64,000 nt of DNA from Candidatus Omnitrophota bacterium. GTDB lineage: Bacteria; Omnitrophota; Gorgyraeia; B26-G9. This document shows, piece by piece, positions 8,504-52,257 of the stretch. Each line of letters begins with the position of its first letter. Position 1 is the first letter of the stretch. The notes beneath the pieces were generated by a model. The model saw nothing but the letters and a program-made list of their open reading frames with translations, was not told the origin of the DNA and made no database searches. Location: contig JBDRJV010000010.1 in NCBI GenBank assembly GCA_043814605.1, positions 1,340-65,339 on the forward strand. The letters run 5' to 3'. The position numbers and the translations under genes are program-made.

Positions 8504-9502
8504 ATGAAAATAGCAGTAGATGCAATGGGTGGAGATAATGCTCCGGATGTTGTAATTAAGGGAGCCATTGAAGCAGCTAAAGAAATAGATGCTGAAATAA
8601 TTTTGGTAGGCGAAAAGAATATTTTAGAATCAAAATTATCTTCTTATAATAATATCCCCTCAAATATTAGTCTGGCACAGGCAGCGGAAGTGATTGAGAT
8701 GAAAGAACCACCGGCAATAAGTGTCCGCCGAAAAAAAGATTCATCGATTAATGTTGCGGTTAATATGGTTAAAGATAAAAAAGCAGATGCTGTTGTTTCT
8801 GCAGGAAATACAGGAGCTGTTGTTTGTGCGGCAAGTCTATTTTTAAAAATTCTTCCGGGTATCGACAGGCCGGGGATTAGCGTGCTTTTACCGACACTAA
8901 AAGATGTTGTGCAGGTAATTGATATGGGGGCGAATATTGATGCTAAACCCGAACATCTTTTACAATATGGAATTATGGGAAGTATATATAGTAATTTTGT
9001 TCTGAATAAAGATAACCCTACAGTAGGGTTATTAAATATTGGGGAAGAAGAAACAAAGGGGCCTGAATTCGTCAAGGAAACTTTTAAATTACTGGAACAA
9101 AACAAAAATATTAATTTTATTGGTAATGTTGAAGGCCGAGACATTTATATGGGTAATTGTGATGTTATTGTTTGTGACGGGTTTTTAGGAAATGTTGTCT
9201 TAAAAGTATCTGAAGGATTAGCAGATGCAATAAAAGAAATGCTGAAAAGAAATCTTTCTTCTAATTTTATGGTAAGGCTAGGGGCGTTTTTAAGTGCGCC
9301 GGCTTTTAAAACATTAAAAAAAGAAATTGATTATTCTGAATATGGAGGAGCGCCGCTTTTAGGTGTGGATGGAGTTTGTATTATTGCGCATGGCGGCTCG
9401 AGTGCGAATGCTATAAAAAATGCGATTCGTGTTGCTCAAGAATCCCTGTTACAGAAAGTTAACCAGCATATTGTGGAAATAATTTCGGGCAATAAGGACT
9501 GA
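8504..9502 (+). CDS. plsX: phosphate acyltransferase PlsX
   Basis: MKIAVDAMGGDNAP start and conserved PlsX sequence. Sits in fab-cluster synteny. Confidence 0.9.
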   Translation: MKIAVDAMGGDNAPDVVIKGAIEAAKEIDAEIILVGEKNILESKLSSYNNIPSNISLAQAAEVIEMKEPPAISVRRKKDSSINVAVNMVKDKKADAVVSAGNTGAVVCAASLFLKILPGIDRPGISVLLPTLKDVVQVIDMGANIDAKPEHLLQYGIMGSIYSNFVLNKDNPTVGLLNIGEEETKGPEFVKETFKLLEQNKNINFIGNVEGRDIYMGNCDVIVCDGFLGNVVLKVSEGLADAIKEMLKRNLSSNFMVRLGAFLSAPAFKTLKKEIDYSEYGGAPLLGVDGVCIIAHGGSSANAIKNAIRVAQESLLQKVNQHIVEIISGNKD

Positions 9503-21537: not shown

Positions 21538-22722
21538 TCACATTAATTCCCGGCTAAACATACAAACCCTGTTGCGGCCTGTATTTTTGGCAGCATAAAG
21601 CGCTTTATCGGCACAATTAACTAATTCTTCTTTAGTAGATGCATCTTGCGGAAAACTGGCAACTCCAATGCTGATTGTAATTCTTTTGGGGGTAGCCTTC
21701 TGATTGTGGCAGAAAGAATATGCAGCAACTAATTTTCTAATTCGCTCGGCTGAAGAATAAGCTTTTTCTTTATATGTTTCTGGTAAAATGATTGCAAATT
21801 CCTCGCCTCCATAACGGGTTACAGAATCAACTTCCCGGCATGAATTTTTGAGAATTTCTGCCAGATCTTTCAGTAAATCATCTCCGGCAATATGGCCTAA
21901 TGTATCATTAAAATCTTTAAAGTAATCAAGGTCCACCATGAGCAAACTTAAGTACCGATTAAACCGAGTGGCTCTTTTTACTTCTTCATTAATTTGATGC
22001 TGAAAATATCCGTAATTCCAAAGATTTGTAAGCCGGTCAGTATTAGACATAACCAATGCTTTTTCAAACTCTTGAGAATTCTCAATCGCTAAGCCGGCTT
22101 GATCGGCAAACATCGAAAGCTTCCAAATATCATCTGTTGTAATTGAACGTTTTGAATAAAAATTATCAACCAGCATTACTCCCACAACATGATTTTTAGC
22201 TAATAAAGGAACAGTAACAAAATATTCCATATTAAACAAAGACACAACCGGATCGTTTTTTTTAATTAAGAGTTTTTTTTCATCATTAATAATTTCAAAA
22301 GGGCTTTTATTTAAAACGGTTTGGGCTAAAATCCCGGAAGATAAGTTTATTGGTAGTGACATATTTTTGACGGTATTATTTAAATGCGAATCATTACTTC
22401 TGCCAAATTCTTGATAGGCATTGAGCAATTCATCCAAATTTTTACCGGATTTTTTTATAAATCGCCAAATATCCTGGGCATGATCCCCTGAATCCGGGCC
22501 GATGCCCATACGGCCTTCTAACTGATTAGTGTTTTCATTAACTAAAAAAACCATAGCTCGGTTAAAACCCAGCCCTTCGCCGGCGGTAACACTAGTTAGG
22601 ATAATGTAGAGAATTTCATCCAATCTCAGCGTTGAACGCATGGCATTACCAATTTCATAAAGCATTAATAGTTCCGCGCTGTATTGACTCTTAACTTTTG
22701 AGGGTATTGTTTTTCTTAACAT
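21538..22722 (-). CDS. GAF domain-containing diguanylate cyclase (GGDEF)
   Basis: N-terminal GAF-like region. C-terminal GGDEF domain with an RYGGEEF motif. Confidence 0.8.
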   Translation of the reverse strand: MLRKTIPSKVKSQYSAELLMLYEIGNAMRSTLRLDEILYIILTSVTAGEGLGFNRAMVFLVNENTNQLEGRMGIGPDSGDHAQDIWRFIKKSGKNLDELLNAYQEFGRSNDSHLNNTVKNMSLPINLSSGILAQTVLNKSPFEIINDEKKLLIKKNDPVVSLFNMEYFVTVPLLAKNHVVGVMLVDNFYSKRSITTDDIWKLSMFADQAGLAIENSQEFEKALVMSNTDRLTNLWNYGYFQHQINEEVKRATRFNRYLSLLMVDLDYFKDFNDTLGHIAGDDLLKDLAEILKNSCREVDSVTRYGGEEFAIILPETYKEKAYSSAERIRKLVAAYSFCHNQKATPKRITISIGVASFPQDASTKEELVNCADKALYAAKNTGRNRVCMFSRELM

Positions 22723-22795
22723 AGGTTTTATTGTATAATCAGTCGGTTTTTCTTGTCAATAACAAAAGCAGTAAAAAAATCAGGCAGGGAAGAAA

Positions 22796-23356
22796 TTAAT
22801 CCCAAGCAGCAGAAAATTCACAACAATTAGCTCCTTTTGTAACGCATTTAGTTTCAAATAGTTCTATATTTTTTGCCCCGCTCATTTTGAGAATAGCCTT
22901 AAAATAACCGATAGTGAGCATACAGAAACTTTGATGAGGAGTTTTATAATCCTGAATTTGTAAGGTTGCGGTATTATTTTTAACTGATGTCACTTTTATA
23001 GATCCATGATCATGTATTCTTTTCCAAAAAATTGGGCTGCGGGAAAGAACAAATAAGGGATCACCGAAATGAATAAATACTTTAAAAATTTTAGCAGTAC
23101 CCACCTCTGCTCCATAAGCACCTATTTCCTCGCATAATTTATAGTCTCCTTTTCCAAAAATCTTATCCAGGGCAATTATCAAATTAATAAGAGTTTGTTC
23201 CGGGTACATGTTTATGGAATAAAGATGCCGGCAAAGCAGGGTTTTGTCTGGATCCGGTAATTGTTCCAGAATCTTATCAAAAGCTTCTGGTCCAAATTTT
23301 TCTTCGATAAACTTTTTTGCGATTAAGAACTGGCTGCCTTTTAAATTTGCGTTCAT
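22796..23356 (-). CDS. V4R-like small-ligand sensor domain protein (putative)
   Basis: C-terminal E-x-K-C-x3-G-A-x-CCEF pattern resembles the V4R (4-vinyl reductase) domain end. It sits immediately upstream of, and co-oriented with, the GGDEF gene. Confidence 0.35.
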   Translation of the reverse strand: MNANLKGSQFLIAKKFIEEKFGPEAFDKILEQLPDPDKTLLCRHLYSINMYPEQTLINLIIALDKIFGKGDYKLCEEIGAYGAEVGTAKIFKVFIHFGDPLFVLSRSPIFWKRIHDHGSIKVTSVKNNTATLQIQDYKTPHQSFCMLTIGYFKAILKMSGAKNIELFETKCVTKGANCCEFSAAWD

Positions 23357-43545: not shown

Positions 43546-43974
43546 GGGGGTGAAAGGGTTCGACTTAAGTGGATTAAGTAAGAGCAGCATGTCGAGGTGG
43601 TCGGGAGGCCTCGTTAAACACCTGGCAAAAAAATAAACGCTAAAACTGAAGTTCCAGCTAGCGTGGATGCACTTCTTGAAAAAATCGGAACGGGCATTGC
43701 TCATCCGACATTTTCCGGAATGCTTCCAACACCAGTGTTGTTTTAAAATAAAACAACCCGCTTTTTTATCTGCGCCTGCGGGGTAGAAAAGCGTCATCAG
43801 CAGGATCGTCCCGCCGCCTAGCTTTTAGCGGGCGGGATTAAACCCTTAAAAGCTGCCTTTTGAAATACCCTGTTTGCTGGGGATTTTAAAAGAAAGATTT
43901 ATAAACAGACTAAACATGTAGATACTCTTATTGGTTGCTTAAGGACGCGAGTTCAATTCTCGCCACCTCCACCA
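43546..43974 (+). ncRNA. ssrA: tmRNA (ssrA)
   Basis: 5' end GGGGGTGAAAGGGTTCGAC and 3' tRNA-like end GGACGCGAGTTCAATTCTCGCCACCTCCACCA (T-arm + acceptor + CCA). smpB is immediately upstream. A canonical ALAA-type tag reading frame could not be identified by eye. Confidence 0.75.
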
Positions 43975-44034
43975 AATTTTCTTGCGAAAATTTCCACAGG
44001 AGAAAACGAAGTTTTCCCCTTATGGCGCTCGCCA
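43961..44034 (+). repeat. direct repeat copy 1: last 14 nt of tmRNA + about 60 nt trailer (two small hairpins)
   Basis: Near-identical to 44263-44336 (one mismatch in the first 56 nt). Confidence 0.8.
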
Positions 44035-44193
44035 TCATGCATTGGGCTCGCTGTAACCCCTTTCCAAATGGAATAGATCTTAGTCAAAGAAGAAGGGGAG
44101 TATCCCCCTCTTCTTTAGAAATCTGTACCCCCTATAAAGGAGTCGCTTCGCGACCTGGAATAATAGAGTTATGATTTTGGTGGGTTCTATGGT

Positions 44194-44262: not shown

Positions 44263-44336
44263 CGCCACCTCTACCAAATTTTCTTGCGAAAATTTCCACA
44301 GGAGAAAACGAAGTTTTCTTTTTATGGCGTTCGTCT
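44263..44336 (+). repeat. direct repeat copy 2 (tmRNA 3'-end fragment CGCCACCTCTACCA + trailer), ends in hairpin + TTTTT
   Basis: See copy 1. Here the trailer hairpin GAAAAC-GAA-GTTTTC is followed by a T5 run (terminator-like). Confidence 0.8.
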
Positions 44337-46193
44337 CGCTGTTGCCGGGAGCATTTCTTCGATAAACTTCCATGATTCGGGGTACCAGCTTAATCCATTA
44401 ATTTCAAATTTATGAATATATTCTAAGTAGTTGTGGTTGTGGTTATTCCCGGCGAAATAAACAAAAAAATTCCGAGTAATCTGATTATTTTCATTAATAT
44501 CAAAAATAGAAGGATATAATATATCTGCTTGTATTTTTAATTCCTGGAAGATTGTCGGAGCAATATTATTGAGTCCTACCGGAGCATCAGAAACCTGTAG
44601 TTGAGTATTGGTTTTAAAAGGTTTAACGAGGATTAAAGGTAAAGCGCGGGAGATTTTGCATTCAAGGTTATTATAACTAAAATAATCTGATTTTTTTGAT
44701 GCGCCTATTTGTTCAAAGCCTGAGATTTCGCAATTAGAGCCATGGTCGCCGATAATAAAAATCAATGAATTATCATAAAGATTGTTTTCTTTAAGAATTT
44801 CTAAAAATTTTAAAGTTATTTTTAAATGTCCTTTAGCGCAGGAAATAAATGATTTTCTGGTTTGAGGCAAATTGTTATAATGAATTTTCAAGTTTTCATC
44901 TAGACATAACGGCGGGTGAAATCCACTTAGATGATAATATTTGAAAGTTGGCAGCGGACTGTCTAAAGATATATTATTAACTGCGTTTTGTGTAAACAGA
45001 GCAAAATCATTATTTAATGTGTTTTCCGAATAAATTATTTCATTGTGTAATTCTTCCGGATTATCTGGGAGTAGTTTTAAATCACAGCCTGTTTTAAAAG
45101 TTAGTATTTTTTGAATATTGTTCAAGGAGAAGATTCTTTTTAAAAACCAAGTGCGGTTATTGTAAATATATCTTCTAAAATAATGCGGCATTATTCTAAA
45201 TAATGCCGCATCGTATAATTGAATAATATCAAAGAATTCATCGTTGGCAGATGTTCGAACAGTATTTTCATTAGTTTTAGGCTTAGGATCGATCGTGTTT
45301 TTTATATAATTCGATGCTATTCTTTTATCAATTAATACCCTTACATAAGCGTACAAATCTACTAAAAATCCGTTTTCTTTCAGCTTTTTAGGAAGGCAGG
45401 AGCTAGATAAATAAGCTTTTTCAATAAATAAATCTATCGGCAGAGTATTATCATAATATTTACCAGTTAAAATTACAGGTGTAGAAAATTCTGTTACAGG
45501 AAAAGCTCCTAAAGCATTTCGGTAATAGGTGAAACCGGCAAAATTGTTTCTCATGGTTTTGTCGTGTTCAATTATTTCGTTAAACCAATCAGATTGAAAA
45601 CTGTCTAGAACAAGAATAATCACATTTTTTTCTTCTGAAAATCTGAATTTATTAGAAGAATCAATTGTGCATTCATGACGTTGTGCTATAGACGTATCAT
45701 TTTTGCTATTTATGTATGAAAATATAAGGGAAAATAACTGAATTAAAATTAAGATTATACTGGTTTTTTTTGCAAAACTGTAAACAAGATTTGTTTTTCG
45801 AGTGAGTAATGTAAAGGTAAGAATATAAACCCCAATATCAATAATCCCTCGATAATGAAATTTGCCCCAGTCAATGTGTTTACCGTCAAACAATCCGTAA
45901 TCCCAGACCAAAATATTAGCGTTAAACCAAAACAGAAAACCTAAGACAAATAAAGTGCTGATATTTTTTTTAAATCTGTCTATATTTTTATTGTATGCTG
46001 TTAATAAATAAAGTAAAAAAATTAATGTAATTGTTATTTTGAAACAGGTAAGTACTAATCTGAAAAAAGAAGAATAAAAATTGAAATTATTTAAGTTTGC
46101 CAGGTAGAGATGTAAGGGGACAAAGAAAAAAACTGTTAAAACAAAAAAACTTACTACAACTAAAGAATGTGCAAGTTTGTTCTCTTTATTCAC
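44322..46193 (-). CDS. LtaS/EptA-like sulfatase-family membrane transferase (polytopic N-terminus + periplasmic alkaline-phosphatase-fold domain)
   Basis: Five or more N-terminal TM helices. The IILVLDSFQSDWFN motif is equivalent to LtaS VVLESFQ. The region DHGS...IFIIGDHG is typical of the sulfatase superfamily. Confidence 0.55.
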   Translation of the reverse strand: MNKENKLAHSLVVVSFFVLTVFFFVPLHLYLANLNNFNFYSSFFRLVLTCFKITITLIFLLYLLTAYNKNIDRFKKNISTLFVLGFLFWFNANILVWDYGLFDGKHIDWGKFHYRGIIDIGVYILTFTLLTRKTNLVYSFAKKTSIILILIQLFSLIFSYINSKNDTSIAQRHECTIDSSNKFRFSEEKNVIILVLDSFQSDWFNEIIEHDKTMRNNFAGFTYYRNALGAFPVTEFSTPVILTGKYYDNTLPIDLFIEKAYLSSSCLPKKLKENGFLVDLYAYVRVLIDKRIASNYIKNTIDPKPKTNENTVRTSANDEFFDIIQLYDAALFRIMPHYFRRYIYNNRTWFLKRIFSLNNIQKILTFKTGCDLKLLPDNPEELHNEIIYSENTLNNDFALFTQNAVNNISLDSPLPTFKYYHLSGFHPPLCLDENLKIHYNNLPQTRKSFISCAKGHLKITLKFLEILKENNLYDNSLIFIIGDHGSNCEISGFEQIGASKKSDYFSYNNLECKISRALPLILVKPFKTNTQLQVSDAPVGLNNIAPTIFQELKIQADILYPSIFDINENNQITRNFFVYFAGNNHNHNYLEYIHKFEINGLSWYPESWKFIEEMLPATARRTP

Positions 46194-47574
46194 AGGATTC
46201 CTTTTGTTTAAATAAATAAATTTTTCTTAAGGATTGGGTTATGTCTTTACACTTTTGCAGTTCAAAATACCGCTGAAAAACATTTTCAAATTGCGATTGA
46301 TAGTAATCGTCAAAGATATCTTTACGGTCCTTAAGCATTTTTTCAACTTGGGAATCATTTTTGGGAATAAATTCAATGATTAGCCATTTACAGATCTGGC
46401 TAAAGAATTTAGCTAAATTCTCAAAACAGATATTATCAGTAATTCTTAAGTGGTGCATTAATCCTAGCACGAAAACCATATCTGCGGGGCCTCGTTTAAC
46501 TAAAGAATCTCTTTCTTGATTAGCCCAGCCCAGGCTAGGGCTGGGATTGGCAATATCAACAACCAGAGGTAAAATATTTTTTAGATTAGCATTTTGACAT
46601 TGATGATAATTCTTTTCAATGCAGGATTCATTTTTATCTAAAGATAAAGTAAAAATTCCTTTTTCCTGGGCAATTTGGCTAAATATCCCGGTATTTGCTC
46701 CTAAGTCCCAAATGTTTTCAGGATTAGTTTGGGCTAAAAAATTATTAACTAGTTGCTGTTTATTTTTTAAAGCCTCAGGAGTATAACTATTTTGTTCATT
46801 ATAATAATTATCCCAATAAGTTGCTTGAGGCTTCCAATATAAATTTTTTACAGTGTTTTCTAGATTATCAATTAGTGCGCAGAGAGATTTTTTACTTATT
46901 TTTTGCCCAGAAGAATTAATTTCTTTTTGAAAAAATATATTTTGTGTTTTTGCATGCAGGTGAATATGGGTTAATAATGAAAAATTAAAATAACTTGAAA
47001 AAGGAAGCAGTTTACTGGCGAAAGCTAAAGGAACTCCGTCAATAAAAGACTTAAAAAAAGAAGTGCATTCTGGCCCAGCGTATTTTATTAAAGCTAACGG
47101 GGCTAAAAAATGCTGTATAAATTGTTTGTAACCTGGCCACAATTGATTATTTTTGTATTTTTCAAAGGAGAGAGTATCAATTAAAATTGGATGGCAATCT
47201 TTAAATTGAATATTATAAACGCTAGAGTCTTTTAAAATCATGCCAAATTCTAGAGCTATTTTTTGAACTTTTAAAGTTAATAATGCAGCATCTTTTAACT
47301 GGCTAAAACACCATTCGTAAGGGTAAGATACAAAAGGGATTTTTTCCGGCTGAATAATTTTATAATGGCTGGGCAGAGAACTAATATTTAAAGAAACTTC
47401 CTGATGAGGAATGAGTAAATTTTCCTGACTTAGCTGTGTATAGAGTCCGGATTGCATTAAATGATCATAATTTTCTTTATAATCATAATTAATTTGGCGG
47501 TATAAGACATGGTTATGATATAAAATAAAACCGCTAGGATCACGGAATGAGGCTGAATGTATTTTATTTACCAT
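46186..47574 (-). CDS. fusion of kinase-like (choline/aminoglycoside phosphotransferase-type) domain and class I SAM methyltransferase domain
   Basis: The N-terminal half has a Brenner-like catalytic loop (ILKDSSVYNIQF...ILIDTLSFE). The C-terminal half has MTase motif I (IWDLGANTGIF) and downstream acidic motifs. Confidence 0.45.
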   Translation of the reverse strand: MVNKIHSASFRDPSGFILYHNHVLYRQINYDYKENYDHLMQSGLYTQLSQENLLIPHQEVSLNISSLPSHYKIIQPEKIPFVSYPYEWCFSQLKDAALLTLKVQKIALEFGMILKDSSVYNIQFKDCHPILIDTLSFEKYKNNQLWPGYKQFIQHFLAPLALIKYAGPECTSFFKSFIDGVPLAFASKLLPFSSYFNFSLLTHIHLHAKTQNIFFQKEINSSGQKISKKSLCALIDNLENTVKNLYWKPQATYWDNYYNEQNSYTPEALKNKQQLVNNFLAQTNPENIWDLGANTGIFSQIAQEKGIFTLSLDKNESCIEKNYHQCQNANLKNILPLVVDIANPSPSLGWANQERDSLVKRGPADMVFVLGLMHHLRITDNICFENLAKFFSQICKWLIIEFIPKNDSQVEKMLKDRKDIFDDYYQSQFENVFQRYFELQKCKDITQSLRKIYLFKQKESCE

Positions 47575-47803
47575 CTAAATGTTTATTTTTCCGAGAAAAA
47601 AAAGATTTAAGAAAAGATTTATATTTATTAAAAATCAATTTTAAAACAAAAAAACCACTGAGTAATCCGGCGATTATTAGCTGAAATAAATTGCTGCCGC
47701 TACCAGGATCAAGATAAGCATAACTTGTTTTAGTGAAAACAGTTATATAAATGAAAATAAAAGTAATATAAAATAACATGGTTTTTATTGGTTTCTCATG
47801 CAT
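47564..47803 (-). CDS. small membrane protein (2 TM)
   Basis: 79 aa. Overlaps the start of the downstream gene. Hydrophobic. Confidence 0.3.
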   Translation of the reverse strand: MHEKPIKTMLFYITFIFIYITVFTKTSYAYLDPGSGSNLFQLIIAGLLSGFFVLKLIFNKYKSFLKSFFSRKNKHLDGK

Positions 47804-47972
47804 TCTTAATTTTCTTTTGCAAATAATCTCTTCTTATTATATAGAAATATTGTTAAAATTCAAACAGGAAATTTTATGATCATTAAATTAGGTTTTTCTG
47901 TTGGCAAAAATAGTACTTAGTGATACAATACTACGCATAACACTAATCCGCTAATTAAAATAGAATTAAAAG

Positions 47973-49088
47973 ATGTTTAAAAATAAATATAAATATAATT
48001 TGACAGTTTTAATATTTTTTTCAGTTATTCTTTCTCTAACTCTAAGTGGCTGTGCTGGTTCGGGAAAAACAAGAGCATCTTTGGGTAAAATAACGGAAAG
48101 ATCAGTTAAAATTAACGGAAAACGTTATGTTTCTGTTTTTGAAATTTGTAAAAATCAAAATATTTCCTATGATTGGGACGGATTTTCTAATATTATTACT
48201 TTAAAAAAAGAAGGTATTCAGATAAAGCTTTGTCTGGGCAGTTCGCTGATACTGTATGCAGATCAAGTGCATGATTTGGAATCACCGGTGCGAGTTTATA
48301 ACGGTTTAATTATGGCCCCGGATTCTTTTGTAAAATTTTTTCTGATAGAAAAAGAAATAATTCCGCCAAAAGAAGCAAAACCAGGTATTTTTAAAATTAA
48401 AAAAATAGTTATCGACGCTGGCCACGGGGGAAAAGATCCCGGAGCTGTTGGTAAAAGTGGCATAAAAGAGAAAGACATTGTTTTAGATCTTGCCCAGCGT
48501 TTAGGTAAAGAGCTTAAAAAACAAGGCATTAATGTAGTTTTAACTCGGAATACGGATATTTTCCATTCTTTGCAAAAACGCAGTCAGATTGCAAATGAAG
48601 AAAATGCAGATTTTTTTATCAGTATCCATGCCAATGCTGCGCAAACATCATCGGCACAGGGGTTTGAAGCCTATTATTTATCTGTAGATCATGATGATTT
48701 TTCTAAAGCTGTGCAAATCAGAGAAAATGCCGCAATAAAATTTGAAGACAATACAGAATACCAATATTCAACAGATTTAAATGCAACACTTTGGGACATG
48801 ATTCTTTCCGAAAATAGGATTGAATCCATAAAGATGGCAAAATTTGTGGCTGACGAATTAAAAAGAAATTTAAAATTAAATACGCGCTATATCAAAGGTG
48901 CTAATTTTTATGTTTTAAAAGGCGCAAAAATGCCGGCGGTTCTTTTAGAAGCCGGGTACTTGACAAATTCTCAGGAAGCCGCCAGGCTTAATAATGCATA
49001 TTATCGCCAGATGTTGGCCGAGGCAATTAGTTCCGGGATTATAAAATATAAAAGAACGTTTGAATTAAATAATGGGTTTAGCCGATGA
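47973..49088 (+). CDS. N-acetylmuramoyl-L-alanine amidase (Amidase_3, AmiC-like) lipoprotein
   Basis: Lipobox LTLSGC. IVIDAGHGGKDPGAVG and the zinc-binding motif of Amidase_3. Confidence 0.8.
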   Translation: MFKNKYKYNLTVLIFFSVILSLTLSGCAGSGKTRASLGKITERSVKINGKRYVSVFEICKNQNISYDWDGFSNIITLKKEGIQIKLCLGSSLILYADQVHDLESPVRVYNGLIMAPDSFVKFFLIEKEIIPPKEAKPGIFKIKKIVIDAGHGGKDPGAVGKSGIKEKDIVLDLAQRLGKELKKQGINVVLTRNTDIFHSLQKRSQIANEENADFFISIHANAAQTSSAQGFEAYYLSVDHDDFSKAVQIRENAAIKFEDNTEYQYSTDLNATLWDMILSENRIESIKMAKFVADELKRNLKLNTRYIKGANFYVLKGAKMPAVLLEAGYLTNSQEAARLNNAYYRQMLAEAISSGIIKYKRTFELNNGFSR

Positions 49089-49894
49089 ATAATTTAAGAC
49101 CGATAGGAATTTTTGATTCTGGCATGGGGGGATTAACAGTTGTCAAAGAGGTAATGCGTACACTGCCGCAGGAAAAGATCATTTATTTTGGGGATACAGC
49201 GCGTGTGCCTTATGGGCCAAAATCAAAAGAAACTGTTGTGCGTTTCTCAATTGAGAATATTCTTTTTTTGCTTAAACATAATGTAAAAATGATAATTATT
49301 GCCTGTAATACAGCTTCCAGTGTGGCGCTTTCTATTGTCCAGGAAAATTTTAAGGTGCCGGTTATGGGTGTAATTACCCCGGGGGTAAAAAAAGCTTTGA
49401 GTATTACAAAAAATAATCGGATTGGAGTTATTGGCACAAAGACAACAATAAAAAGTAAATCCTATGAAAAGCAAATACTTAAAATTTCTAAAAATACAAA
49501 AATATACAGTAATGCTTGTCCGTTATTTGTGCCTTTAGTGGAAGAAGGCTGGTTAAATCGGCCGATAACCAAGATTATTGCGCAAGAATATTTGTCTCCT
49601 TTTAAAAAGAAAAAAATTGATACAATGATCTTAGGCTGCACTCATTATCCGTTATTAAAGCCGGTGATAAAAGATGTCTTAGGCACAGGAGTAGTTTTGG
49701 TTGATTCCGCTAAGGAAGTTGCTCAAGGGGCTAAACAAATTTTAGTTAAAGAGAATTTACTGGCGACAAAACAAAAATCAAAAATCAATAATATCAGTTT
49801 TTATGTTAGCGACGAACCGGAAAATTTTTCGCATCTGGGGCAAAAATTTTTAGGTTTTGCTCTTAATAATGTAAAGAAGGTAAATCATGTTTGA
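49085..49894 (+). CDS. murI: glutamate racemase
   Basis: IGIFDSGMGGLTV and the CNTAS...GCTHYP catalytic cysteine motifs. Confidence 0.85.
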   Translation: MNNLRPIGIFDSGMGGLTVVKEVMRTLPQEKIIYFGDTARVPYGPKSKETVVRFSIENILFLLKHNVKMIIIACNTASSVALSIVQENFKVPVMGVITPGVKKALSITKNNRIGVIGTKTTIKSKSYEKQILKISKNTKIYSNACPLFVPLVEEGWLNRPITKIIAQEYLSPFKKKKIDTMILGCTHYPLLKPVIKDVLGTGVVLVDSAKEVAQGAKQILVKENLLATKQKSKINNISFYVSDEPENFSHLGQKFLGFALNNVKKVNHV

Positions 49895-50255
49895 AATTAG
49901 CGTAAGTATGGATTTCAGTGCGGCACATAACTTGCGTAATTATCAAGGTAAGTGCGAGAGACTGCACGGACATAATTGGCAGGTTGAGGTAACGTTTGGA
50001 TCAGAAAAATTAGATAAAAGTAATATGGTCATGGATTTTTCTCAAGCAAAAAAAATGTTAAAGCAGGTACTTGCATATTTCGATCATTCTTATATTAATG
50101 AAACAGAATATTTCAAAAAATTTAATCCCACTTCTGAAAATATTGCAAAATTTATTTTTGAAAAGCTAAAATCAGAAGCAAAAAAAATGGATTGTGATGT
50201 TATGCGTGTTAATGTTTGGGAAACACCGCGGAGTAAGGCAACTTATTATGAGTAG
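49887..50255 (+). CDS. queD: 6-carboxy-5,6,7,8-tetrahydropterin synthase QueD
   Basis: CERLHGHNW motif (CxxxHGH) of the QueD/PTPS family. 122 aa. Confidence 0.85.
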   Translation: MFEISVSMDFSAAHNLRNYQGKCERLHGHNWQVEVTFGSEKLDKSNMVMDFSQAKKMLKQVLAYFDHSYINETEYFKKFNPTSENIAKFIFEKLKSEAKKMDCDVMRVNVWETPRSKATYYE

Positions 50256-50413
50256 AGAGAATCTAAAAGCTATTATTAATAAGATGAGAATATAAACAAA
50301 AACTATAGTGTTTAGCGGTTAGAGGTTAGAGGGGATTTTTTAATTTTAGAAAAATAAATACTCTCTCTACTCTTTTCTTGCTACTCGCTACTTAATTGTT
50401 TTAAAGGTGAGTT

Positions 50414-51103
50414 GTGCTAAAAAAAGAACTGCTTAATAAAAAAGTGAAGAAAGCCGTGGTTTTGTTATCCGGAGGATTGGATTCTACGGTTACGCTTTAT
50501 TATGCAAAAACTCAGGGTTATCAAACTTATGCGTTAACCTTTGATTATGGCCAGCGTCATAAAAAAGAAATTAATTTAGCCCGGCAGATTGCCGGAAAAG
50601 CAAAAAGCTCCTGGCGGTTAGTGAAGATGCAGTTGCCCTGGGGCGGGTCAGCATTGTTGGATAAAAAAATAAAAATCCCCCAAAGGCGAAAAAATATGAA
50701 TAATATTCCCGCAACTTATGTTGCGGCGAGAAATATAATTTTTTTAAGTTTTGCCGCTTCCTGTGCAGAAACAATAAAGGCAGAAGCGATTTTTATCGGA
50801 GCAAATCAAATTGATTACTCCGGGTATCCGGATTGCCGAATGAGTTTTTTGAAAATGTTTGAAAAGATTTTGGAAAAAGGGACAAAACAAGGAACTGGCG
50901 GTAAGAAAATTTCTGTTTGTGCTCCATTAGTTAAAAAAAATAAAGAACAAATTGTAAAAATGGCTTTAGATTTAAAAATTCCGCTGGAACTGACCTGGTC
51001 GTGTTATCTGGGCGGTAAATATCCTTGCGGTATTTGCGATAGCTGTGTTTTAAGAAAACAGGGTTTTATGGCTGCGAAAACTAAAGACCCGGCTTATGCA
51101 TAA
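50414..51103 (+). CDS. queC: 7-cyano-7-deazaguanine synthase QueC
   Basis: AVVLLSGGLDSTV PP-loop and a C-terminal CxxC...CxxC zinc site. GTG start. Confidence 0.9.
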   Translation: MLKKELLNKKVKKAVVLLSGGLDSTVTLYYAKTQGYQTYALTFDYGQRHKKEINLARQIAGKAKSSWRLVKMQLPWGGSALLDKKIKIPQRRKNMNNIPATYVAARNIIFLSFAASCAETIKAEAIFIGANQIDYSGYPDCRMSFLKMFEKILEKGTKQGTGGKKISVCAPLVKKNKEQIVKMALDLKIPLELTWSCYLGGKYPCGICDSCVLRKQGFMAAKTKDPAYA

Positions 51104-51806
51104 GGCGAAAATTAAGGCAAAGATTAAAGAAGTTTTTTTTAGTTTGCAGGGAGAAGGGCCTTATTTAGGCACAGGGCACATCTTTGTGCGTTTTGATGCT
51201 TGTAATATAAATTGTGTTTATTGTGATACTCAGGCAAAAATAAACCGCAAAGCTGATAAAGTCAAAGAATATACAGTGCCGCAGCTAACAACGCGAGTTT
51301 TAGCTTTACAAAAAAAAAATAACGCACAGTTTTTAAGTTTAACTGGCGGAGAACCGCTGCTTTATGTTGATTTTATTAAAGAATTTTTGAAAAAGATTAA
51401 GCAAAAAAAATTATTAATTTATCTTGAGACCAACGGCATACTATATGCTGATTTTGCTCAAATCAGAGAATTGATCGATATCGTGGCTATGGATGTGAAG
51501 CTGCCGAGTTCCGGCAAACATAAATCTTTTTGGCTTGAACATGAGAAATTTTTAAAATTGTGCCGCGGGAAAAATATTTTTATTAAAGCTATAATCTGCT
51601 TAAAAACTACAATTGCGGATATAAAAAAGCTGACAAATTTAATTGCCCGGGTGGATAGAAACAAAATACTAATTTTACAGCCAAACAGTGATGATTTGTC
51701 TAAAGAATTAATAAAAAAGATGATGATGTTTAAGCAAATTGCTCAGAATAAGATTAAAGATGTCCGGATTATTCCTCAAATGCATAAACTTATCGGAGTT
51801 AAGTGA
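51096..51806 (+). CDS. queE: 7-carboxy-7-deazaguanine synthase QueE (radical SAM)
   Basis: CNINCVYCDT radical-SAM motif and LTGGEPLL. Sits in the que operon. Confidence 0.8.
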   Translation: MHKAKIKAKIKEVFFSLQGEGPYLGTGHIFVRFDACNINCVYCDTQAKINRKADKVKEYTVPQLTTRVLALQKKNNAQFLSLTGGEPLLYVDFIKEFLKKIKQKKLLIYLETNGILYADFAQIRELIDIVAMDVKLPSSGKHKSFWLEHEKFLKLCRGKNIFIKAIICLKTTIADIKKLTNLIARVDRNKILILQPNSDDLSKELIKKMMMFKQIAQNKIKDVRIIPQMHKLIGVK

Positions 51807-51831
51807 TATTAAAAAAGGGAAAATAGAAAAA

Positions 51832-52257
51832 ATGAAAAAAAATCAAAGAACATTAAGTGATTATGAAAATCTGCAAAAAAAAGTACGGAAATTTAAAATG
51901 CCCGAGGTTGAAGTATGGCAAAATATGTATGCTGATAAAAATTACTGGATTCAAATGGATATTCTGGAATTCACCTGTATTTGTCCGAAGACCGGATTAC
52001 CGGATTTTGCCCAAATCACTGTTGAGTATAGCCCGGGGAAATATTGTTTAGAATTGAAATCATTAAAATACTATATTAATGCTTACCGAGATTTAGGGGT
52101 TTTCCATGAACATGCAGTCAATAGAATTTTAGATGATTTAGTTAAGTCCTGTAAGCCGCGGCAGATGATTGTAACCGGTGATTTTAATTTACGCGGGGGG
52201 ATTAAAACCACAGTTAGTGCAGAGTTTAAAGAGAAAAAGACAAAGGGTAAAAGATAA
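51832..52257 (+). CDS. queF: NADPH-dependent 7-cyano-7-deazaguanine reductase QueF (type I); ORF track allows earlier start 51739
   Basis: EFTCICPKTGLPDFAQI (catalytic Cys + QueF motif). The ATG at 51832 is preferred because QueF type I is about 140 aa. Confidence 0.8.
   Translation: MKKNQRTLSDYENLQKKVRKFKMPEVEVWQNMYADKNYWIQMDILEFTCICPKTGLPDFAQITVEYSPGKYCLELKSLKYYINAYRDLGVFHEHAVNRILDDLVKSCKPRQMIVTGDFNLRGGIKTTVSAEFKEKKTKGKR

Follow-up and report, generated by a model that had tools for sequence, protein, structure and literature searches.

A cassette of three overlapping genes, here termed C, B and A in their gene order C-B-A, was found on the minus strand of a 64,000-nucleotide stretch of DNA (hereafter the window) from an uncultured Candidatus Omnitrophota bacterium (GenBank assembly GCA_043814605.1, contig JBDRJV010000010.1, positions 1,340 to 65,339 of the forward strand). 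Gene C (47564-47803) encodes a small membrane protein of 79 amino acid (aa) residues, gene B (46186-47574) a 462-aa protein in which a kinase-like domain is fused to a methyltransferase (MTase), and gene A (44322-46193), which starts with GTG, a 623-aa membrane protein of the LtaS/EptA type. On sequence comparison, the locus is almost certainly a member of the NoeA/NoeB cassette family, which is also represented by Lani_1193-1194-1195 of Legionella anisa. It is an addition to this known family, with A coming from a rarer and longer subfamily of the alkaline phosphatase (AP) partner. An initial annotation of the window, made without database searches, had already described the architecture correctly as an LtaS/EptA-type transferase, a kinase-like/MTase fusion and a small membrane protein, while the known NoeA/NoeB (Lani_1194/1195) family went unrecognised in it. 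We consider it rather probable that this NoeA/NoeB-type cassette decorates an envelope or secreted glycan or lipid.

Relationship to NoeA/NoeB and Lani_1193-1195

A tblastn search of protein B against annotated plasmids returned 57 Sinorhizobium megaplasmids with E values of ~3e-66, and B could be aligned over its full length (residues 7-459) with NoeA of S. meliloti at 33% identity (E 5e-77), every kinase and MTase motif being common to the two proteins. The S. meliloti locus is arranged in the order of nodL, encoding a hexapeptide acetyltransferase, an 82-codon ORF, a gene for a 476-aa B homologue and a gene for a 553-aa Sulfatase-domain protein, of which the latter two products are named 'nodulation protein NoeA' and 'nodulation protein NoeB' in several records. 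The 82-codon ORF between nodL and noeA (positions 8718-8966 of locus L083, a pSymA-type plasmid of S. meliloti) reads ...VPAHA/YLDPGTGSMLVQ... and carries a YLDPGTGS motif. In the records this ORF is at most a 'hypothetical protein', and many records have no feature at this place; a fourth gene has therefore probably been overlooked in the classical nodL-noeA-noeB operon. According to the citing literature (PMC9758233, PMC4053727), this operon is preceded by nod box n5, as described by Ardourel et al. (1995, Mol Microbiol 17:687).

Protein A and NoeB were barely alignable in pairwise BLASTP analysis (E 0.027), suggesting that A belongs to a subfamily different from NoeB. Comparison of the A family with NoeB-type proteins in hhalign gave a probability of 100% and an E value of 2.5e-40 across 461 columns, the membrane domain included, using an A profile in which two of the 27 sequences were of the NoeB type.

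The family has also been described bioinformatically in a survey of kinases in Legionella ('Pan-kinome of Legionella', Sci Rep 2022, PMC9758233). Lani_1194 was reported there as an atypical kinase in which the β3 Lys is exchanged for Arg, the equivalents of D166, N171 and D184 (protein kinase A numbering) are kept and the ion-pair Glu is missing, and the MTase fusion was found in 94% of ~2000 homologues (PMC9758233). Among 816 gene neighbourhoods in the same work, Lani_1193, a small hypothetical protein often predicted to carry a Sec signal peptide, was a neighbour in 65%, and Lani_1195/NoeB, which has an AP fold and was matched by HHpred to EptA (5FGN, 3.2e-27), in 38% (PMC9758233). The window cassette is similar to Lani_1193-1195 in its combination of an atypical kinase-MTase, a small protein and an AP-fold neighbour, C and A being likened to their counterparts by the published description. 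While the Lani proteins were discussed as putative effectors (PMC9758233), there is no sign of secretion for the window cassette. It shares with the NoeA/NoeB locus the YLDPGTGS ORF upstream and the AP-superfamily membrane protein downstream; in contrast to the symbiotic context of that locus, with its nodL and nod box, the window locus has none of these and belongs to an uncultured Omnitrophota host. Protein C is probably the counterpart of both Lani_1193, again likened by description, and the unnamed ORF between nodL and noeA.

Domain structure of protein B

The sole signal for B in Pfam was a weak match to Methyltransf_23 (E 1.2e-3), and the N-terminal domain gave no match in Pfam, in NCBIfam or in single-sequence and profile searches of PDB sequences. 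This domain was identified only via structure prediction in AlphaFold2 (AF2) and Foldseek searches. Full-length B was modelled as a confident and rigid two-domain protein, with a predicted local distance difference test (pLDDT) score of 86.9 and a predicted template modelling score of 0.89, and Foldseek analysis of this model returned class I MTases, such as ChlM, WbdD and TehB, with E values of ~1e-7. The matches of the whole protein are dominated by the MTase domain and are uninformative on the kinase question. When residues 1-248 (46831..47574, minus strand) were modelled alone (pLDDT 84.5), the top 50 PDB matches were all kinases, 49 of them protein kinases and the remaining one the APH-like small-molecule kinase AmiN (6sui), with E values of 1e-4 to 8e-4, probabilities of 0.98-1.0 and template modelling (TM) scores of 0.33-0.47, which are too low to assign a substrate class. 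These models support the kinase fold that the initial annotation had proposed for this half of the protein.

Alignment of 43 homologues from many phyla, with a mean column identity of 66%, revealed that R26, D116, N121 and D133 of B are invariant. R26 occupies the β3 position, where Lys is usual, D116 and N121 belong to the catalytic loop K115-D116-x4-N121 (L-K-D-S-S-V-Y-N), and D133 is located at the 'DFG' position; an SFRDPSG loop is also present. Residues 249-462 and the stop codon (46186..46830, minus strand) were assigned to a class I S-adenosyl-L-methionine (SAM) MTase domain in Pfam, AF2 and Foldseek analyses. SAM motif I of this domain reads W289-D-x-G-x-N-x-G296, of which WDxGxNxG is invariant in the same homologues, and the region after β4 reads D340-x-x-N343-P-S-P346...G349-W350...E354-R355. 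As judged from the models and these residues, B appears to be a soluble protein that joins an atypical protein-kinase-like domain, catalytically intact by its residues, to a class I SAM MTase. A search of 1.84 billion representatives with the kinase-domain profile yielded 4712 matches, nearly all with the same 450-470-aa architecture; except for two C-B fusions (see below), no alternative domain fusion informative for B was present among them.

The initial annotation had labelled the two halves of B as a choline/ethanolamine kinase and as a phosphoethanolamine N-methyltransferase (PEAMT)-type enzyme, respectively, which would generate soluble phosphoethanolamine or phosphocholine for attachment by A to an envelope glycolipid or glycan. 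The kinase-like fold with its D-x4-N...D residues is compatible with this scheme, and the N-P-S-P sequence of B, which we take to resemble the (D/N)PP(Y/F) motif of amino-group MTases, provides a lead only. Further points in its favour are that the best, non-significant PDB matches of the MTase half were the PEAMTs 4krg and 5wp5, and that Phyre2 chose a PEAMT template for the Lani_1194 family (PMC9758233). Neither label was supported by the analysis, however. B has no Pfam APH or Choline_kinase match at E<=1, its loop reads K-D-x4-N instead of the Brenner H-x-D-x4-N, and its structural neighbours are generic protein kinases. The match to 4krg (E 0.058, residues 252-338) covers SAM motif I only, and PEAMT was not among the Foldseek top 50, which ranked O-, C-, S- and N-MTases alike, so that O- versus N-methylation by B is not assignable. 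Moreover, no cytidylyltransferase or LicD-type gene was linked to the cassette in any locus examined, and the phospho-headgroup used by LtaS/EptA/BcsG-type enzymes comes from membrane phospholipids rather than from soluble phospho-bases. We therefore regard a soluble-headgroup pathway as improbable.

Protein C, the small membrane partner

Protein C begins with a signal-peptide-like segment ending in SYA/Y, followed by the motif Y30-L-D32-P33-G34-S-G36-S37...Q41, the family form of which, Y-[LI]-D-P-G-[ST]-G-S-x3-Q, is invariant. One transmembrane helix and a K/R-rich amphipathic tail come after the motif; a Trp residue is near-invariant in the tail of C relatives, and the window protein has Phe there. 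No family match was obtained for C in Pfam or NCBIfam. An N-terminal hydrophobic segment is present in 47 of 60 relatives, the others beginning almost at the motif, and in 34 of those 47 small residues occupy positions -1 and -3 before the invariant Tyr, as in a signal-peptidase-type site. SignalP predictions for Lani_1193 homologues agree with a signal peptide (PMC9758233). Across the C family, ~6 K/R per 20 residues were counted after the transmembrane helix versus 0.1 around the motif, a bias that, by the positive-inside rule, places the motif outside and the tail in the cytoplasm. C is predicted from these features to be a bitopic membrane peptide with its YLDPGTGS end outward and its basic tail cytoplasmic.

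Gene linkage was counted in 80 species loci, the denominators being the loci with room for the gene in question. A small ORF bearing the motif lies directly 5' of B in 60 of 75 loci, and three of three C homologues are followed by a B-like gene of 330-464 aa (one of them cut by the contig end); the pairing of C and B is near-obligate. The C family comprises at least 7957 protein clusters, all unnamed. In two natural fusion proteins, P0258 and P0273, a C-type peptide, complete with signal segment, YLDPGTGS motif, transmembrane helix and basic tail, runs directly into a B-type kinase domain at its SFRDPSG start.

Such extreme conservation of the C-B pair, whatever the envelope type of the host, would also fit B acting on C, that is, a regulatory module in which B modifies C, A or another protein and the cassette signals rather than supplies a substituent. 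The nearest structural neighbours of B, the protein kinases PknG, CK2 and PAK, are in line with this possibility, as is the label 'PrmA' (a protein MTase) that some sources give to homologues, although the PrmA Pfam matches are weak. However, B is a cytoplasmic protein, on the side of the membrane opposite to the outward-facing invariant motif of C, and little of the cytoplasmic tail of C is conserved beyond its basic residues and the one Trp. No response regulator or other signalling partner was linked among the flanking genes of the 80 loci, and the low TM scores do not extend to a class of substrate. A protein-modifying role is, in our view, hardly probable.

Protein A, a putative membrane phosphotransferase

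Hydropathy analysis of A suggested a polytopic N-terminal membrane domain with 4-5 transmembrane helices in residues 1 to ~165 (45699..46193, minus strand), comprising four segments (11-29, 46-64, 78-96 and 140-158) and a weaker fifth candidate at ~114-131, which was judged by eye. Residues ~185-623 and the stop codon (44322..45641, minus strand) correspond to a predicted extracytoplasmic domain of the AP superfamily (LtaS/EptA-like), as indicated by a Pfam match to Sulfatase (PF00884, E 5e-11, residues 189-550) and by conserved columns. A-type proteins are 28-43% identical to each other. In an alignment of 27 relatives, D197, H426 and D483 are invariant, and conservation reaches at least 90% at T234 (~90%), H421 and H484. 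The metal pair D483-H484 lies within GDHG, and the nucleophile region reads F-P-V-T234-E-F-S-T-P. Loss of the catalytic Thr/Ser and the metal ligands had been named in the initial annotation as grounds against its transferase assignment, and these residues (T234, D197, H426 and D483-H484) are indeed conserved. The formylglycine motif C/S-x-P-x-R of true, formylglycine-dependent sulfatases was not found at the nucleophile position of A.

The best PDB match of the A-family profile was LtaS of S. aureus (2w5q/2w5r, E ~1e-7), in which the family Thr, T234 of A, is aligned to T300; the significant part of this alignment is local and spans ~70 residues around GDHG. No LtaS/EptA family of NCBIfam or of another curated collection was matched by A. 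Given the Thr nucleophile, the metal ligands, LtaS as the best solved relative and the missing sulfatase motif, A is predicted to be an LtaS/EptA-like, phosphotransferase-type member of the AP superfamily. Similar to A, LtaS consists of a polytopic membrane domain (five transmembrane helices in LtaS) followed by an extracytoplasmic AP-fold domain with a Thr nucleophile. A differs from LtaS and EptA in its first metal ligand, which is the invariant D197 in A and Glu in the other two (E255 in S. aureus LtaS), and A does not share family-level similarity with LtaS over the whole catalytic domain.

Distribution and gene linkage

The B family comprises more than 8000 protein clusters and is represented in at least 585 GTDB species representatives, with hosts in Omnitrophota, Chloroflexota, Firmicutes, Actinomycetota, Proteobacteria, Planctomycetota, Acidobacteriota and the candidate phyla radiation (CPR), as well as in the archaeal Methanomicrobia and Nitrosopumilaceae. 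B proteins are ~50-55% identical across phyla and domains. Directly 3' of B, 40 of 74 loci have an AP-family gene, and a further 15 have one nearby. Homologues of the A type stand behind a gene of 461-463 aa in three of three cases, with a 67-68-aa gene upstream in two of them; the third locus has the B gene at its very start. At least two subfamilies of the AP partner can be told apart, one that includes the window protein and is represented in ~5 of the 80 loci, and a commoner type of 510-550 aa in the rest. Genes C, B and A are inherited together across phyla, and the cassette is self-contained, mobile and situated in unrelated gene neighbourhoods. Scattered as it is over many phyla, the operon is not a piece of lineage core, in agreement with the initial annotation.

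In loci from Anaerolineae/Chloroflexota that have no AP partner, a conserved protein of ~330 aa is encoded just 3' of B (L021, L035, L041, L048, L054, L059, L064, L072 and L073). It has two transmembrane helices and a well-conserved C-terminal domain that belongs to no Pfam family, and it could be an alternative partner or mere lineage synteny. A soluble protein of 534-548 aa replaces the AP-family enzyme 3' of B in L044, L052, L061 and L066; a Capsule_synth domain (PF05159, KpsC/KpsS-like) was detected in the proteins of L052 and L066, those of L044 and L061 being grouped with them by size and position only. This protein downstream of B is a hint of capsule or glycolipid chemistry.

Glycan genes are neighbours at some loci, including Wzy_C proteins, Wzm/Wzt, glycosyltransferases and flippases. 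Wzm and Wzt adjoin the cassette in L001 (12068-14276) and Wzt does so in L090 (3674-4981), two unrelated loci, and Wzt carries the cap-binding Wzt_C domain in both.

The occurrence of Wzt with Wzt_C beside the cassette brings to mind WbdD, the chain terminator of the O9a O-antigen of E. coli, which is, like B, a kinase-like domain and a class I MTase in a single polypeptide, and the only characterised precedent in envelope glycan synthesis for phosphorylation followed by methylation, giving a methyl-phosphate cap (PMC3482155). By this analogy, B would phosphorylate and then methylate the non-reducing end of a polyprenol-linked glycan in the cytoplasm, so that the cap would terminate the chain or mark it for ABC-transporter export, and A would be separate or needed only in some hosts. 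Structures of WbdD (4azs, 4azt and 4ax8) rank 2-4 among the matches of full-length B, and loci with B and C and without A (19/74) would be explained as well. Nevertheless, the WbdD match spans ~234 columns, which is one domain, and the domain order is reversed: WbdD has an MTase-kinase-coiled-coil order, with the coiled coil as a ruler, whereas B has a kinase-MTase order and no coiled coil in its model. WbdD also has no obligatory small membrane or AP-fold partner, and WbdD-like enzymes (Lcin_0519) and the NoeA family are distinct kinase-MTase families with no more than a remote relationship (PMC9758233). Most loci, the window included, have no ABC-transporter glycan genes nearby, and the tight link of B to C and to an outside-facing phosphotransferase would be left unexplained. 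Capping in the manner of WbdD is thus considered unlikely.

Proposed function

Decoration of the envelope or of a secreted glycan is, by a narrow balance, the probable general role of the cassette. A specific mechanism in three steps can be proposed with low confidence. C would tether B at the membrane's inner face in the way BcsF does for BcsE, a role suggested by the two C-B fusions together with this precedent. B, using ATP and SAM, would act at the cytoplasmic face on a membrane-bound substrate, most likely a lipid-linked donor, to produce or alter a group that contains phosphate. At the outer face, A would pass a phospho-substituent to a surface or secreted glycan or lipid specific to the host. 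Candidates for the substituent are methyl phosphate, for which WbdD is the analogue, and an N-methylated phospho-amine, between which the evidence does not discriminate.

Several observations weigh against such a decorating role and its mechanism. No member of the family has a demonstrated biochemical activity in the literature. In S. meliloti, a nodL mutant that is polar on noeA and noeB lost only the O-acetylation of Nod factors, and the functions of noeA and noeB were described as still unknown (bioRxiv 10.1101/2021.11.23.469708). At β3, B has Arg where Lys is usual, and an αC Glu could not be identified, so kinase activity, as opposed to another nucleotide-dependent reaction, is not certain. 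With no AP-family gene nearby in 19 of 74 loci, B and C evidently can work without A. The part assigned to C, whether as tether, flippase or acceptor, is inferential throughout, and the C-B fusions may be frameshift or assembly artefacts, given that P0258 seems to carry a frameshift at its C-terminal end and that P0273 is truncated. Finally, the flanks of the cassette are heterogeneous, with 155 Pfam families among 145 neighbours in the 80 loci and few glycan genes, so that gene context lends weak support to any given acceptor; indeed, neighbourhood statistics on these 145 flanking proteins revealed no dominant theme for an acceptor pathway.

A more far-reaching proposal, to which we attach a low probability, is that the three proteins make up a single trans-membrane machine installing an undescribed phosphate-containing decoration. 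The tail of C would keep B at the membrane, and at the inner leaflet B would phosphorylate and methylate a headgroup or a lipid carrier. This donor would then reach the outer leaflet, possibly aided by C, with the YLDPGTGS...Q motif at the outer interface, and the variable A would put methyl-phosphate or an N-methylated phospho-amine on host-specific surface or secreted glycans. In a bolder variant, the Ser/Thr residues of the C motif would themselves be the acceptor or primer. If true, this machine would provide the long-missing biochemical function of NoeA/NoeB and define a new pan-prokaryotic class of envelope modification, spanning bacteria, CPR and archaea.

Under the favoured reading of a NoeA/NoeB-type decoration cassette, the locus bears on a widespread system that has had a nodulation host-range phenotype in S. 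meliloti since 1995 and is independent of the envelope type of its host. The window highlights the small ORF, with its outward YLDPGTGS...Q motif, as the most faithful partner of the kinase-MTase and as an integral component. It also argues for a better annotation of the other two genes, as NoeA-like kinase/methyltransferase and NoeB-like (LtaS/EptA-family) phosphotransferase instead of 'SAM-dependent methyltransferase' and 'sulfatase'.

Operon layout and surrounding genes

The three minus-strand ORFs overlap as described in the initial annotation, by 11 nt between C and B (ATGGTAAATAA) and by 8 nt between B and A (GTGAATAA), and a Shine-Dalgarno-like AAGGA is located 5 nt 5' of the GTG of gene A. 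Taken together, the overlaps and the AAGGA make the proposed translational coupling of C, B and A plausible. A promoter-like TTGAAT-16 nt-TATAAT sequence (47836..47863, minus strand) lies ~33 nt 5' of the start of gene C and, with a 10/12 match, is the best in the region; since 24 such sites were found in this AT-rich region against 21.7 expected in shuffled sequence, it is a positional lead only.

The window has a strong strand bias, with 42 of 46 large ORFs on the plus strand and a positive GC skew almost throughout. Only two gene groups of the window lie on the minus strand, the cassette and another at 21538-23356. Divergent from the cassette, a housekeeping run (47973-52257), read from the translations only, encodes an N-acetylmuramoyl-L-alanine amidase-like protein and a murI-like glutamate racemase, followed by queD-, queC-, queE- and queF-like genes. 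With regard to anti-phage defence, no PADLOC model was matched by A or C, and B gave only a generic MTase-level match (mad2, E 0.0037); a defence-system reading was rejected.

The tmRNA repeat and horizontal transfer

A transfer-messenger RNA (tmRNA) gene of 429 nt (43546-43974; full-length Rfam match, 194.7 bits) lies beyond the 3' end of gene A and was the only match in an Rfam scan of 42.5-48.5 kb. Its tag peptide as called by ARAGORN is unusually short (APAG*), and is probably mis-called, unless the tag of this lineage is atypical. A direct repeat of 71 nt (43961-44031 and 44263-44333; 93% identical, offset of 302 nt between the copies) contains the last 14 nt of the tmRNA and 57 nt downstream with two small hairpins; its exact core is 42 nt long, for which 0 matches are expected by chance. 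The second copy, a tmRNA-3'-end/terminator sequence (44263..44333), also holds the last 12 nt of gene A including the stop codon. Its two short hairpins, as read from the DNA, could terminate the operon, and are regarded as context rather than as a demonstrated part of the cassette.

The initial annotation had interpreted this repeat as an att duplication beside horizontally acquired cargo. The repeat itself is real, but it does not flank the operon: the copies enclose only 231 bp, the operon lies outside, and no third copy or longer duplication of the tmRNA is present in the window. The 231-bp filler has a GC-rich hairpin (44094-44109) and no convincing ORF or Rfam match, and may represent a remnant left after excision or decay of an element, or else the outcome of a local terminator duplication. 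Composition, a check named in the initial annotation, gives no sign of recent transfer, as GC content and GC content at third codon positions of A and B are inside the spread of the window (z -0.8 to -1.4).

An island integrated at the tmRNA gene with the operon as its cargo would agree with the inclusion of the tmRNA 3' end in the repeat, with the rarity of minus-strand gene groups in the window and with the mobility of the cassette over evolutionary time, which is found across phyla, on plasmids and, elsewhere, beside tRNA genes, transposases and group II introns. It is at odds with the position of the operon outside the repeats, the mere 14 nt of tmRNA that are duplicated and the unexceptional composition; likewise, no integrase-like ORF was recognised among the cassette-flanking ORFs at 40-52 kb, which were not scanned against Pfam. 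This origin appears doubtful for the window locus. The phyletic pattern indicates a mobile cassette, which is also carried by plasmids and lies beside tRNAs and mobile elements at other loci; the operon was likely 'acquired' in the long run, on grounds other than those of the initial annotation.

Among the other loci, tRNAs lie beside the cassette in L018 (5545-5622) and L004 (9254-9325); a tRNA-Pro was observed just upstream of the cassette in another Omnitrophota metagenome-assembled genome and a tRNA-Cys just downstream in one from Zixibacteria. Transposases or group II intron reverse transcriptases are located beside it in a Methanoculleus and a Peptococcaceae genome (L086, L087).

Comparison with analogous systems

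A parallel in operon logic to C-B-A is BcsE-BcsF-BcsG, which is involved in phosphoethanolamine cellulose in E. coli (PMC11470070). BcsF, a peptide that crosses the membrane once, recruits the cytosolic BcsE by its amphipathic cytosolic tail, and BcsG is a membrane-located AP-fold phosphoethanolamine transferase (PMC11470070). Unlike the kinase-MTase B, BcsE senses c-di-GMP and contains a degenerate NTPase domain, and BcsF has no conserved outside motif as is found in C. B and C have no relation to their Bcs counterparts in sequence or fold, and the resemblance is one of analogy only.

A second parallel is offered by the mobile GtrA/GtrB/Gtr(type) and ArnC/ArnEF/ArnT cassettes, which likewise combine, in this gene order, a small membrane protein, a cytoplasmic-face enzyme and an outside-facing transferase, the first two components being highly conserved and the last variable and host-specific. 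Their enzyme families are entirely different from those of the cassette, and it is sugars that they move, from polyprenyl-phosphate carriers. In C-B-A, too, the outside-facing phosphotransferase is the variable component, a pattern that points to a conserved donor and a host-specific acceptor. Such a conserved maker, accompanied by a small membrane protein and a variable transferase outside, as in Gtr and Arn, suggests that B may prepare a lipid-linked donor.

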